From NCBI RefSeq assembly GCF_003018255.1, contig NZ_CP027440.1: a DNA stretch of 64,000 nt; one strand, 5' to 3'. Below the pieces are notes generated by a model. The model saw only the letters and a program-made list of their open reading frames with translations, was not told the DNA's origin and did not search any database. Each line of letters opens with the position of its first letter. Position 1 is the stretch's first letter. Shown piece after piece: positions 53,428 to 57,074 of the stretch. This stretch comes from Escherichia coli (lineage in GTDB: Bacteria; Pseudomonadota; Gammaproteobacteria; Enterobacterales; Enterobacteriaceae). Both the position numbers and the translations under genes were made by a program.

Positions 53428-54207
53428 ATGATTGAACAATTTTTCAGACCCGACTCTGTCGAACAGGCGCTGGAACTGAAGCGCCGCTACCAGGATGAAG
53501 CCGTCTGGTTCGCCGGGGGCAGCAAACTCAACGCTACACCAACCCGTACCGATAAAAAGATTGCCATTTCCTTACAGGATCTGGAACTGGACTGGGTTGA
53601 CTGGGATAACGGTGCACTGCGGATTGGCGCGATGTCTCGCTTGCAAACACTGCGTGATGCGCGATTTATTCCTGCAGCACTGCGTGAAGCTCTCGGTTTT
53701 GTTTACTCACGCCATGTTCGTAATCAGTCGACCATTGGTGGTGAAATTGCCGCCCGGCAAGAAGAGTCAGTGCTGCTTCCCGTCCTGCTGGCACTGGATG
53801 CTGAACTGGTTTTTGGCAACGGCGAAACTCTGTCAATTGAGGAGTACCTGGCCTGCCCATGCGATCGCCTGCTAACCGAAATCATCATTAAAGATCCGTA
53901 TCGCACCTGTGCGACTCGCAAAATTAGCCGTTCTCAGGCAGGTTTAACCGTCGTGACGGCAGCCGTTGCAATAACAGACCACGACGGTATGCGAATTGCG
54001 CTGGATGGCGTAGCCAGTAAAGCACTGCGTCTGCACGATGTTGAAAAACAAAACCTGGAAGGTGATGCCCTTGAACAGGCTGTCGCCAACGCCATTTTCC
54101 CGCAGGAAGATTTGCGGGGCAGCGTGGCCTATAAACGCTATATCACGGGAGTTCTGGTAGCCGACCTTTATGCCGACTGCCAACAGGCTGGGGAGGAAGC
54201 CGTATGA
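53428..54207 (+). CDS. ygfM: FAD-binding subunit of a molybdenum hydroxylase (XdhB/CoxM-like)
   Basis: 259 aa; FAD motif VWFAGGSKLNA comparable to xdhB; overlaps xdhD by 4 nt. Confidence 0.88.
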   Translation: MIEQFFRPDSVEQALELKRRYQDEAVWFAGGSKLNATPTRTDKKIAISLQDLELDWVDWDNGALRIGAMSRLQTLRDARFIPAALREALGFVYSRHVRNQSTIGGEIAARQEESVLLPVLLALDAELVFGNGETLSIEEYLACPCDRLLTEIIIKDPYRTCATRKISRSQAGLTVVTAAVAITDHDGMRIALDGVASKALRLHDVEKQNLEGDALEQAVANAIFPQEDLRGSVAYKRYITGVLVADLYADCQQAGEEAV

Positions 54208-57074
54208 TCATCCACTTTACTTTAAATGGCACGCCCCAGGAGCTAACCGTTAATCCTGGTGAAAACGTGCAAAAGCTGTTGTTTAACATGGGAATGCACT
54301 CTGTACGCAACAGCGATGATGGCTTTGGGTTTGCCGGTTCTGACGCAATTATCTTTAACGGTAATATCGTTAACGCGTCCTTGCTTATCGCCGCACAGTT
54401 AGAGAAGGCAGATATTCGTACCGCAGAATCTCTGGGCAAATGGAATGAGTTAAGTCTGGTTCAACAGGCCATGGTTGATGTTGGCGTGGTGCAGTCTGGT
54501 TATAACGATCCAGCTGCGGCTCTGATTATCACCGATCTTCTCGATCGCATCGACGCACCTACCCGCGAAGAGATCGACGACGCGCTCTCAGGTCTGTTTA
54601 GCCGCGATGCTGGCTGGCAGCAATACTATCAGGTCATTGAACTGGCGGTTGCACGTAAAAATAATCCGCAGGCCACCATTGATATCGCTCCGACTTTCCG
54701 TGACGACCTTGAAGTCATTGGCAAGCATTATCCTAAAACTGATGCCGCGAAAATGGTGCAGGCGAAACCCTGCTATGTTGAAGATCGCGTAACGGCTGAC
54801 GCCTGCGTCATTAAAATGTTACGTAGCCCACACGCTCACGCACTGATTACTCATCTGGATGTCAGCAAAGCTGAAGCCTTACCGGGCGTCGTTCACGTTA
54901 TTACTCACCTGAATTGCCCGGATATTTACTATACCCCGGGTGGTCAGAGCGCACCGGAACCGTCACCGCTTGACCGCCGAATGTTCGGCAAGAAAATGCG
55001 TCACGTCGGCGATCGCGTTGCTGCGGTCGTCGCTGAAAGTGAAGACATTGCGCTCGAAGCACTGAAGCTCATCGACGTTGAATATGAAGTGCTTAAGCCG
55101 GTAATGTCGATTGACGAGGCAATGGCGGAAGATGCGCCTGTCGTGCACGATGAACCGGTGGTGTATGTTGCTGGTGCACCAGATACTCTGGAGGAAGATA
55201 ACTGTCATGCAGCCCAGCGCGGCGAGCATATGATCATCAACTTCCCGATCGGTTCTCGCCCACGCAAAAATATCGCTGCCAGTATTCATGGTCATATTGG
55301 TGATATGGACAAAGGCTTTGCCGATGCCGATGTGATCATTGAGCGAACCTATAACTCAACGCAGGCGCAGCAGTGCCCGACTGAAACACATATCTGCTTT
55401 ACCCGTATGGACGGCGATCGTCTGGTGATCCACGCCTCCACCCAGGTACCATGGCACTTACGCCGCCAGGTCGCGCGCCTCGTGGGCATGAAACAACATA
55501 AAGTTCATGTCATTAAAGAACGTGTAGGCGGCGGTTTTGGCTCTAAACAGGACATCCTGCTGGAAGAAGTGTGCGCCTGGGCAACTTGCGTGACCGGGCG
55601 TCCGGTACTTTTCCGCTACACCCGTGAAGAAGAGTTTATTGCTAACACCTCTCGTCACGTAGCGAAAGTCACCGTCAAACTGGGCGCGAAAAAAGATGGT
55701 CGCCTGACGGCAGTGAAGATGGATTTCCGCGCCAACACTGGTCCTTACGGTAACCACTCACTCACCGTACCGTGTAACGGACCGGCGCTGTCGCTGCCGT
55801 TATATCCATGCGATAACGTCGATTTCCAGGTCACCACCTACTACAGCAACATTTGCCCAAATGGTGCTTATCAGGGTTATGGCGCACCGAAAGGTAACTT
55901 CGCTATCACCATGGCGTTAGCGGAACTGGCGGAACAATTGCAGATCGACCAACTGGAAATTATTGAACGTAATCGTGTACACGAAGGGCAGGAGTTGAAA
56001 ATTCTCGGTGCGATTGGTGAAGGTAAAGCGCCGACATCCGTTCCTTCCGCCGCCAGCTGCGCACTGGAAGAGATCCTGCGTCAGGGTCGCGAGATGATCC
56101 AATGGTCTTCACCAAAACCGCAAAATGGTGACTGGCACATCGGTCGCGGCGTCGCCATTATCATGCAGAAATCAGGGATCCCAGATATCGATCAGGCTAA
56201 CTGCATGATCAAACTGGAATCAGACGGTACCTTTATCGTTCATTCTGGCGGTGCGGATATTGGTACTGGTTTGGATACTGTGGTGACGAAACTGGCAGCA
56301 GAAGTGCTGCACTGCCCCCCGCAGGACGTGCATGTTATCTCCGGTGATACCGATCATGCGTTGTTTGATAAAGGCGCATATGCCTCGTCCGGTACTTGCT
56401 TCTCGGGTAACGCTGCGCGTTTGGCAGCGGAAAATCTGCGGGAGAAAATCCTGTTCCACGGCGCGCAAATGTTGGGTGAGCCAGTGGCAGATGTTCAACT
56501 AGCAACGCCGGGCGTCGTTCGCGGCAAGAAAGGCGAAGTTAGTTTCGGAGAGATAGCCCATAAAGGCGAAACCGGCACCGGCTTTGGTTCACTGGTGGGA
56601 ACTGGCAGTTATATCACGCCTGATTTCGCCTTCCCGTATGGCGCAAACTTCGCTGAAGTTGCCGTCAACACGCGTACGGGTGAAATCCGCCTGGATAAAT
56701 TCTACGCCTTGCTGGACTGCGGTACACCGGTCAATCCAGAGTTAGCGCTGGGACAAATCTACGGTGCCACCCTGCGTGCTATCGGCCACAGTATGAGCGA
56801 AGAGATCATTTATGACGCCGAAGGTCACCCGTTAACGCGTGATTTACGCAGTTACGGCGCACCGAAAATTGGTGACATTCCGCGTGATTTCCGCGCTGTG
56901 CTGGTGCCGAGCGACGATAAAGTCGGCCCATTCGGGGCGAAATCGATCTCGGAAATCGGTGTAAATGGCGCCGCTCCGGCGATTGCTACCGCAATTCACG
57001 ATGCCTGCGGCATCTGGTTACGCGAATGGCATTTCACACCGGAGAAAATACTCACCGCGCTGGAAAAAATATAA
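54204..57074 (+). CDS. xdhD: Molybdopterin-binding hydroxylase with N-terminal degenerate Fe-S-like domain
   Basis: 956 aa; C-terminal aldehyde-oxidase/XDH Mo-binding domains; N-terminal ~160 aa aligns to XdhC but lacks its cysteines. Confidence 0.9.
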   Translation: MIIHFTLNGTPQELTVNPGENVQKLLFNMGMHSVRNSDDGFGFAGSDAIIFNGNIVNASLLIAAQLEKADIRTAESLGKWNELSLVQQAMVDVGVVQSGYNDPAAALIITDLLDRIDAPTREEIDDALSGLFSRDAGWQQYYQVIELAVARKNNPQATIDIAPTFRDDLEVIGKHYPKTDAAKMVQAKPCYVEDRVTADACVIKMLRSPHAHALITHLDVSKAEALPGVVHVITHLNCPDIYYTPGGQSAPEPSPLDRRMFGKKMRHVGDRVAAVVAESEDIALEALKLIDVEYEVLKPVMSIDEAMAEDAPVVHDEPVVYVAGAPDTLEEDNCHAAQRGEHMIINFPIGSRPRKNIAASIHGHIGDMDKGFADADVIIERTYNSTQAQQCPTETHICFTRMDGDRLVIHASTQVPWHLRRQVARLVGMKQHKVHVIKERVGGGFGSKQDILLEEVCAWATCVTGRPVLFRYTREEEFIANTSRHVAKVTVKLGAKKDGRLTAVKMDFRANTGPYGNHSLTVPCNGPALSLPLYPCDNVDFQVTTYYSNICPNGAYQGYGAPKGNFAITMALAELAEQLQIDQLEIIERNRVHEGQELKILGAIGEGKAPTSVPSAASCALEEILRQGREMIQWSSPKPQNGDWHIGRGVAIIMQKSGIPDIDQANCMIKLESDGTFIVHSGGADIGTGLDTVVTKLAAEVLHCPPQDVHVISGDTDHALFDKGAYASSGTCFSGNAARLAAENLREKILFHGAQMLGEPVADVQLATPGVVRGKKGEVSFGEIAHKGETGTGFGSLVGTGSYITPDFAFPYGANFAEVAVNTRTGEIRLDKFYALLDCGTPVNPELALGQIYGATLRAIGHSMSEEIIYDAEGHPLTRDLRSYGAPKIGDIPRDFRAVLVPSDDKVGPFGAKSISEIGVNGAAPAIATAIHDACGIWLREWHFTPEKILTALEKI

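Follow-up and report, generated by a model that had tools for sequence, protein, structure and literature searches.

How does a xanthine oxidase-family enzyme pass electrons between its flavin and its molybdenum if the domain that normally carries its iron-sulfur (Fe-S) clusters has no cysteine to hold them? The question is raised by xdhD, a gene in a 64,000-nucleotide stretch of an Escherichia coli chromosome (NCBI RefSeq assembly GCF_003018255.1, contig NZ_CP027440.1; hereafter the window, meaning this whole stretch). Its product is named [quoted passage not shown] there. We think it likely that codons 1-160 encode a folded two-lobed module that has lost its clusters and persists as a cofactor-free scaffold docking YgfM, the flavin adenine dinucleotide (FAD) subunit, with the usual wire between molybdenum and FAD absent. 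To our knowledge, every characterized FAD-containing enzyme of the family connects its centres in the order Mo <-> FeS I <-> FeS II <-> FAD, FeS I and FeS II being [2Fe-2S] clusters, and we know of no member that has FAD and the molybdenum cofactor (Moco) without [2Fe-2S] centres. The parts of the gene that carry the argument, and the comparator from the same window, are as follows.

54204-57074, + strand: xdhD, 956 amino acids
54204..54683, + strand: first 160 codons of xdhD, a homolog of the 2x[2Fe-2S] module that lacks cysteines (pseudo-Fe-S domain)
54204..54428, + strand: lobe 1, residues 1-75, ferredoxin-like beta-grasp, normal seat of cluster II (FAD-proximal)
54429..54683, + strand: lobe 2, residues 76-160, helical, normal seat of cluster I (Mo-proximal)
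54315..54344, + strand: former cluster-II loop D38-D-G-F-G-F-A44-G-S-D47, codons read directly
54378..54380, + strand: S59, at ligand 4 of cluster II according to the alignments
54495..54506, + strand: S98-G-Y-N101, at the cluster I C-G-[FY]-C motif
54600..54608, + strand: S133-R-D135, at the cluster I C-R-C motif
36556..37035, + strand: xdhC, the genuine 2x[2Fe-2S] subunit of XdhABC (NF007387, 1.3e-102), used as comparator

Residues 1-170 of XdhD align with the window's XdhC at 33% identity over 141 residues (BLASTP, E=1e-22). The first-pass annotation had paired the first ~160 residues with XdhC by short motifs, and these pairs were reproduced, apart from "GLFSRDAGW", which was off by one residue; the right pair is LFSRDAGW/NLCRCTGY. 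Pfam matched the Fer2_2 half of the module at XdhD residues 73-145 (E=5e-12) and gave no match for the Fer2 half. Among solved structures, the FeS subunit of NDH (3hrd_D) matched the XdhD N-terminus with E=1.4e-17, followed by 4zoh_C (1e-11) and then 1t3q_A, 1rm6_C and 1n5w_A, each alignment spanning about residues 3-154 of XdhD and nearly the whole small subunit. XdhC/CoxS-type small subunits (3hrd_D, 1n5w_A, 1rm6_C) share with the XdhD module its length and two-lobed fold, and the XdhC-type motifs LNG, IxTxE, VQxGY and RxxGY are found in both. The difference lies in the ligands and in the chain: XdhC-type subunits are separate chains with eight invariant cysteines and two [2Fe-2S] clusters, whereas the XdhD module has none of these cysteines and is fused to the Mo subunit.

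The ligand cysteines of XdhC are C44, C49, C52 and C64 for one cluster and C103, C106, C140 and C142 for the other, a spacing that we take to agree with that of the CoxS ligands. In the alignment, XdhD has D38, A44, D47 and S59, then S98, N101, S133 and D135 at these positions, the codons at cluster-II ligands 1 to 3 reading Asp (GAT), Ala (GCC) and Asp (GAC). The ferredoxin-type site (C-x4/5-C-x2-C-xn-C) therefore retains 0 of 4 cysteines and the helical site (C-G-x-C ... C-x-C) likewise 0 of 4. XdhD has 17 cysteines in total, the earliest at residue 190, so that residues 1-189 contain none, and the only histidines in residues 1-165 are H4 and H32, of which H32 is not invariant. The same eight positions are cysteine in ~36 of 41 more distant domain-bearing representatives; the 5 exceptions are the XdhD clade itself and one other protein, P0126. 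Because the E-values and alignments agree and no cysteine precedes residue 190, the original observation that every cluster-ligating cysteine is replaced is correct, and we conclude from the sequence comparison that the XdhD N-terminus is homologous to the 2x[2Fe-2S] module beyond chance resemblance. Since both ligand sets are missing, this N-terminus is not to be filed as an Fe-S-binding domain; on the sequence it appears unable to hold two [2Fe-2S] centres in any known way, as the first-pass annotation had supposed.

Is such a domain decaying, or is it maintained? An AlphaFold2 model of XdhD, built on a 37-sequence alignment, has a mean pLDDT (predicted local distance difference test) of 91.7, with 83-97 in the N-terminal blocks, and predicts a folded module in which a beta-grasp lobe (strands 2-7, 10-15, 48-51, 54-57 and 70-72; helices 22-28 and 63-66) is followed by a helical lobe (helices 85-93, 102-115, 121-128 and 139-153). 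Structure prediction, one of the checks proposed earlier, thus gave a confident fold of the kind expected. The best Foldseek match of the model is the aldehyde oxidoreductase (AOR) of Desulfovibrio gigas, 1sij, with TM (template modelling) scores of 0.84/0.89 over 994 alignment columns; at the top of the structural matches stand fused FeS-Mo enzymes from Desulfovibrio, namely 1sij and 1dgj (TM 0.84-0.89), and the same range holds for AOR and 4-hydroxybenzoyl-CoA reductase (4-HBCR) against the model.

The substitution pattern is that of a domain under strong purifying selection. Between divergent E. coli alleles the ratio of non-synonymous to synonymous substitution rates (dN/dS) is 0.033-0.036 for codons 1-160, with 15-16 synonymous and 2 non-synonymous differences, compared with 0.015-0.026 for the rest of the gene. 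Pairwise identity among ten diverse cysteine-less orthologs, ranging from E. coli to Photobacterium and including the metagenomic protein P0121, averages 68-70% for the module as against 76-79% for the Moco domains. When the divergence of the N-terminus is divided by that of the rest, the cysteine-less clade gives 1.33 and the cysteine-bearing sister clade, whose module is a genuine Fe-S domain, gives 1.48; set against the remainder of its protein, the XdhD module is held as tightly as that Fe-S domain. D38, A44, D47 and D135 occur in all of 81 different ortholog N-termini, and S59 (80/81), S98 (79/81), N101 (80/81) and S133 (77/81) are nearly as constant; the former ligand loops rank among the best-conserved stretches. 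The word "relic", in the sense of decay, does not suit a region with dN/dS of 0.03-0.04, a divergence ratio below that of its sister clade and substituted residues that are nearly invariant; "structural pseudo-domain", the other term offered for it, matches the conservation data. Of 5426 complete E. coli genomes, 5177 carry the region. Among E. coli alleles, the window's own xdhD stands out as unusually divergent: at least 99% identity to it is reached by just 12 of the 5177 matching records, and its synonymous divergence (dS) from typical alleles is ~0.13-0.16, with the proteins still ~99% identical.

We then asked from what the cysteine-free state arose. About 118 close orthologs (at least 75% identity) all read D-A-D-S / S-N-S-D at the eight positions; the genera represented are Escherichia, Shigella, Trabulsiella, Atlantibacter, Edwardsiella, Hafnia, Morganella, Serratia, Photobacterium and, among the beta-proteobacteria, Paludibacterium. 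Three metagenomic proteins of ~50% identity (P0121, P0123 and P0237) have near-identical substitution patterns. Relatives from Holophaga, Treponema and other Spirochaetes are 52-57% identical to XdhD, ~955 amino acids long and carry the same family names, and this clade is the nearest to bear the cysteines: all eight are present in 122 of 122 sequences, with C-x5-C-x2-C at the former loop. These TIGR03313 members resemble XdhD in operon and length and have yqeB, yqeC and selD nearby, but keep the eight cysteines, and they presumably have the normal wire. At locus L006, the gene order ygfK-ssnA-hyuA-ygfM-xdhD, in which xdhD encodes P0272, is followed by yqeB-like and yqeC-like genes and selD, and because P0272 lies in the same operon we regard it as a true ortholog in the same pathway. 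The genes after xdhD at this locus (L006:12984-18691) are XdhC/CoxI-type (yqeB-like), YqeC, cysteine desulfurase-like, selD, an Se/S carrier and TusA, that is, a set of maturation genes for selenium-dependent molybdenum hydroxylases in tight linkage with xdhD.

Neighbour-joining trees built on the Mo domains unite gammaproteobacterial XdhD, P0121 and the Spirochaete/Holophaga clade with a bootstrap support of 100. Since the cysteine-bearing clade lies inside this group, the cysteine-free state is derived within the XdhD family, and the tree places the loss after a cysteine-bearing ancestor inside TIGR03313. Whether P0121 and the gammaproteobacterial clade share one loss is less clear-cut: the Mo-domain tree divides its support 48/21/30%, and the 100% obtained with full-length proteins is biased by the shared substitutions, so that a single loss is favored on parsimony only. 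The check proposed earlier, whether orthologs in other genera retain the cysteines, has a divided answer: they are absent in all gamma- and beta-proteobacterial orthologs and kept in the same-operon orthologs of Holophaga and Spirochaetes.

The loss is also recurrent. Further cases were found by a search that started from P0126, a half-eroded protein, and the representative genes are these.

L001:1479-4310: Krumholzibacteria-type fused FeS-Mo gene (P0126)
L010:10001-12859: Krumholzibacteria-type fused FeS-Mo gene (P0395)
L009:9709-12639: Chloroflexi cysteine-less representative (P0485)

A clade from Krumholzibacteria and other metagenome-assembled genomes (~16 clusters; proteins P0390-P0404) has D-G-D-x at site II and all four cysteines at site I, and at these loci a FAD_binding_5 gene lies directly upstream and overlaps the start of the fused gene. 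In a Chloroflexi clade of ~15 clusters (P0435, P0440, P0448, P0455, P0458, P0463, P0473, P0476, P0478, P0481, P0482, P0485, P0486 and P0494) both sites are lost, reading D-[ST]-D-Q / S-N-D-E with the motifs QSGYN and DRE; at L009 the FAD-subunit gene is 2 kb upstream, with TPR-, DinB-like and HicA/HicB genes and a small open reading frame in between. A singleton, P0447, reads D-T-D-G / CCCC. The FAD-subunit gene is kept in the sampled loci of the cysteine-loss lineages, the locus of P0447 lying outside the sample. Neighbours of the fused gene at L010 include a PydA/UacX-like DHO_dh-Fer4 gene and an amidohydrolase gene.

In the Mo-domain tree each cysteine-loss group is monophyletic (bootstrap 100), and the Chloroflexi cysteine-less proteins nest beside a cysteine-bearing Caldilinea-type protein (P0428) that is 70% identical to them in the Mo part. 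A single origin of all cysteine-less forms was rejected, the groups coming together in 0 of 100 neighbour-joining bootstraps of the Mo domains. Horizontal movement of a cysteine-less N-terminus was likewise considered: once the eight ligand columns are left out, the Chloroflexi N-terminus shares 61% identity with that of its cysteine-bearing neighbour and 34% with that of XdhD, and domain transfer is therefore excluded. On these trees, similar losses are independent in at least three other lineages. In every lineage, XdhD included, ligand positions 1 and 3 are Asp; at the first site, lineages differ in position 2 (A/G/S/T) and in position 4 (S/G/V/A/Q/N). In both fully eroded lineages, XdhD and Chloroflexi, QCGYC has become QSGYN and CRC has become SRD or DRE. 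Because Asp (GAY) and Asn (AAY) are two changes away from Cys (TGY), mutational proximity does not account for this convergence. It may rather reflect selection for a specific filling of the pocket, which could be a mimic of the cluster charge, an acceptor of the backbone NH bonds aimed at the cluster sulfurs, or a cation site.

The remainder of the enzyme and its FAD-binding partner appear complete.

54684..57074, + strand: rest of xdhD, linker, a/b-hammerhead and two Moco-binding domains, intact according to Pfam
53428..54207, + strand: ygfM, FAD-binding subunit, directly upstream of xdhD

XdhD matches Ald_Xan_dh_C (PF01315, 1.9e-30), MoCoBD_1 (PF02738, 3.8e-72) and MoCoBD_2 (PF20256, 3.9e-68). 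An alignment of 37 fused relatives shows no variation at E394 and E866 and almost none at Q414; we take these three to be the catalytic residues from what is known of the family. The closest solved Mo subunit by sequence is the alpha subunit of 4-HBCR (3.6e-80), and XdhD scores 2117 bits against the TIGR03313 (XdhD/YgfN) cut-off of 1101.9. By every feature tested, XdhD is a member of the xanthine oxidase family and of TIGR03313. YgfM matches FAD_binding_5 (4.9e-20), CO_deh_flav_C (4.5e-4) and TIGR03312 (2e-146) and keeps the AGGS and TIGGE motifs. The ygfM stop and the xdhD start share a 4-bp ATGA overlap (54204-54207), ssnA and ygfK lie upstream of ygfM in the window, and xdhABC is 17 kb upstream. 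One protein, P0002 (1215 amino acids; 43 member sequences from Logan assemblies), joins YgfM and XdhD in a single chain via a frameshift near the 3' end of ygfM; its junction reads ...GVSGSRPVCRLPTGWGGSR-MIIHF and is either a real variant or an assembly error.

The FAD-subunit gene is directly upstream of the cysteine-less xdhD in every locus read (Photobacterium, Paludibacterium and the P0121 contig), and in Paludibacterium the cysteine-less xdhD sits within a complete uricolytic cluster. Photobacterium also has a conventional three-gene xanthine dehydrogenase (XDH) 4.7 kb upstream of its cysteine-less ygfM-xdhD (L007:942-4508), consisting of a Mo subunit, a 156-residue Fer2_2 small subunit and a FAD subunit, so both types coexist as in E. 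coli. A compensating Fe-S site in YgfM, of the kind found in the beta subunit of 4-HBCR, was rejected: E. coli YgfM has cysteines at 143, 145, 161 and 250, but Photobacterium and Paludibacterium lack the C143/C145 pair, and YgfM shows no conserved four-cysteine motif. The Mo domains have gained cysteines specific to the cysteine-less gammaproteobacterial clade. C398 and C935 are present in 12 of 12 sampled members including P0121, and C190, C391, C457, C551, C667, C704 and C732 in most of the 12, at positions occupied by A, T, V, S, L, Y or F in the cysteine-bearing sister clade.

How, then, might XdhD-YgfM work? By the alignments, substitution rates and trees above, the module is homologous, ligand-free, conserved and derived. 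We suggest that it binds neither cluster and persists as a structural bridge of the architecture, which would cover the pterin side of the Moco domain and supply a docking surface for YgfM. Conserved side chains of Asp, Ser and Asn would sit where the anionic clusters normally are and plug the pockets by charge or hydrogen bonding, or possibly bind a cation. XdhD-YgfM, which reduces urate to 2,8-dioxopurine, would then operate without the canonical FAD -> FeS II -> FeS I -> Mo wire, and electrons from reduced nicotinamide adenine dinucleotide (NADH) and FAD would either cross the gap slowly or take some other route to Mo. In bovine XDH the flavin is 7.8 Å from FeS II, FeS II is 12.4 Å from FeS I, and FeS I is 14.7 Å from Mo. 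From these distances we assume a flavin-to-pterin gap of ~25-30 Å in XdhD-YgfM, across which a rough Moser-Dutton tunnelling ruler would give, on our estimate, ~1e-2 to 1e-5 s-1. Hopping via new Trp or Tyr residues was considered and rejected: Y100 and W/Y138 are aromatic in the cysteine-bearing relatives too, and the new aromatic residues F41 and F43 are not redox-active. Tyr/Trp radical hopping is in any case thermodynamically implausible at about -0.3 V.

The published enzymology has to be set against this picture. From E. coli, Li et al. (2025, PMC12507026) isolated tagged XdhD, with which a protein of ~30 kDa, taken as YgfM, co-purified, and they obtained 2,8-dioxopurine ("yanthine") in an end-point assay with 10 µM enzyme, 1 mM NADH and 1 mM urate; in their delta-xdhD strains urate accumulated and no yanthine was formed. 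The paper gives no rates, metal content or spectra for XdhD, Fe-S in XdhD goes unmentioned in its text and supplement, and C. difficile and E. coli XdhD are stated to be ~25% identical. A commentary (PMC12990295) repeats this picture and cites an AlphaFold 3 ipTM (interface predicted TM score) of 0.94 for the XdhD-YgfM heterodimer, and in reviews by the Leimkühler group XdhD is described as uncharacterised. No mention of the missing cysteines was found in the searchable literature on XdhD/ygfN, the 2025 pathway papers and the commentary, subscription reviews being outside this scope. Since a turnover of 1e-2 s-1 could yield an end-point product detectable by liquid chromatography-mass spectrometry with 10 µM enzyme, the published activity is no proof of an efficient wire.

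Several points nevertheless weigh against a cofactor-free scaffold. Activity driven by NADH (PMC12507026) fits a broken wire poorly unless turnover is very slow. The cysteines gained in the Mo domains may allow a new cluster site elsewhere in the protein, and the absence of clusters from the module is itself deduced from sequence only. Finally, a pure scaffold does not readily explain why Asp has been fixed at the same two positions four times. A bolder view, which we hold to be unlikely, can also be taken: XdhD-YgfM would be the first of a recurrent Fe-S-free flavin-Mo class whose cluster sites have been functionally replaced, at least three to four times independently, by the Asp/Asp and Ser/Asn/acidic set, serving either as a new ion or cofactor relay or as a device insulating Mo from FAD. 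If so, the first enzyme of gut uricolysis would receive its electrons unlike any characterized member of the xanthine oxidase family.

A related possibility is that the remodelled pockets, the D38/D47 Asp pair and the S-N-x-acidic set, bind another ion or cofactor which, if redox-active, would restore the relay. The appearance of the same Asp/Asp and Ser/Asn substitutions in independent lineages, two mutational steps from Cys, their near invariance within the XdhD clade and the reported NADH-dependent activity (PMC12507026) all speak for it. Nevertheless, all-oxygen ligand sets prefer hard, redox-inert cations, conserved His or Cys residues are lacking close by (H4 and H32 are the only histidines in residues 1-165), and positions 2 and 4 of the first site differ across lineages, so we consider it unlikely.

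Alternatively, electrons might bypass the FAD of YgfM and come from another donor, such as YgfS together with the Fe-S flavoproteins YgfT/AegA, which formate dehydrogenase would supply. The window contains candidates for this role.

61412-63834, opposite strand: ygfS/ygfT, 4.3 kb downstream of xdhD

The profile that matches YgfT is named "formate-dependent uric acid utilization protein". As far as the accounts in PMC8097209 and bioRxiv 2022.07.24.501321 go, formate-dependent urate degradation requires aegA and ygfT (Iwadate and Kato 2019) and urate induces ygfT. XdhD-YgfM alone is, however, active with NADH in vitro, the FAD subunit is kept in every cysteine-loss lineage sampled, and in the predicted architecture the pterin would be covered by the pseudo-domain, leaving no obvious docking site. 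In Photobacterium and Paludibacterium, no HydN- or GltD-like gene other than ygfK is found within 10 kb of the cysteine-less xdhD. We therefore judge an outside donor improbable. Of the two partners named in the first-pass annotation, YgfS/YgfT keeps a place among the candidates, weakened by the absence of such a gene from these same 10-kb surroundings. YgfK is unlikely as a donor: it is the next enzyme of the pathway, a 2,8-dioxopurine reductase, and XdhD-YgfM works with NADH alone (PMC12507026).

A wire might also be unneeded if two substrates reduced and re-oxidized Mo in turn at one site, in a ping-pong or transhydroxylase-like manner, for example with one purine oxidized while urate is dehydroxylated and with YgfM having a priming or structural role. 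This would account for repeated loss of the wire, including the lineages that have cluster I only, and the reaction of the clostridial 2,8-dioxopurine dehydrogenase (DOPDH) is reversible (bioRxiv 2025.04.24.650524). Such a mechanism is nonetheless very unlikely, given that delta-xdhA E. coli leaves xanthine unconsumed despite having xdhD (PMC12507026), that NADH is the sole reductant for yanthine formation in vitro (PMC12507026) and that the FAD motifs of YgfM are conserved.

Binding of [2Fe-2S] through the Asp, Ser and Asn side chains, as the "Mo/Fe-S-binding" name at NCBI and TIGR03313 would imply, can be given only a very slight probability: one former ligand is Ala (A44), residues 1-189 contain no cysteine, and the name derives from a model that also spans cysteine-bearing members. 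Single Asp, His, Arg or Ser ligands do occur in some natural and engineered Fe-S proteins, but we know of no Fe-S cluster without any cysteine ligand. Lastly, an alignment artefact or a degenerating or mis-annotated leader, at which the missing Pfam Fer2 half might hint, is refuted to near certainty by the alignments of the full module (E=1e-22 and 1e-17), the confident AlphaFold2 fold, dN/dS of 0.03, the presence of the region in nearly all complete E. coli genomes and the published knock-out and enzyme data (PMC12507026).

The cofactor-free scaffold that we prefer can be compared with the known ways in which the family varies. D. gigas AOR (MOP; 1sij, 1vlb), the best structural match, resembles XdhD in having the FeS module fused to the Mo part in one chain; AOR has both clusters and no FAD subunit, whereas XdhD has a FAD subunit and no cluster ligands. 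The 4-HBCR of Thauera aromatica (1rm6), the closest in its Mo subunit, keeps both [2Fe-2S] clusters, unlike XdhD. It works in the reductive, dehydroxylating direction, and its FAD subunit adds a [4Fe-4S] cluster; YgfM lacks a cysteine insert of that kind. Known variants of the family have dropped FAD (D. gigas AOR), added a [4Fe-4S] cluster (4-HBCR and PaoABC) or swapped FAD for a cytochrome. An active member with FAD and Moco and without cluster ligands breaks the family rule and offers a natural system for the question of how the cofactors communicate. The repeated replacement by Asp, Ser and Asn shows, moreover, a cofactor domain turning cofactor-free while under selection. The same reaction, urate <-> 2,8-dioxopurine, is carried out by XdhAC/DOPDH of Clostridium sporogenes, which is described as having Fe-S domains but lacking an FAD domain; methyl viologen served in its assay, and NAD(P)H is not used (bioRxiv 2025.04.24.650524).

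XdhD catalyzes the committed first step of a newly described anaerobic urate pathway, which is being engineered into probiotics against hyperuricaemia, and current models assume for it an electron path like that of R. capsulatus XDH. The present finding contradicts the cofactor set annotated and assumed for this enzyme, which now holds a central place in urate metabolism of the gut. Should the wire be absent, the urate step may be slow or need another donor, and the cysteine-bearing orthologs may suit engineering better. The NCBI/TIGR03313 name "Mo/Fe-S-binding" stems from a family model that also covers the cysteine-bearing Spirochaete/Holophaga branch; judged by the residues at the ligand positions, it is probably wrong for the proteobacterial branch, which includes more than 5000 complete E. 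coli genomes. A similar label was met in E. coli OkiPb01675 (NZ_AP042478.1; L013:3001-3087), where a deletion has removed xdhD and downstream genes, so that xdhD is cut after 87 bp and idi follows directly. The remaining stub is labelled "2Fe-2S iron-sulfur cluster-binding protein", a label that rests on the cysteine-free N-terminus.

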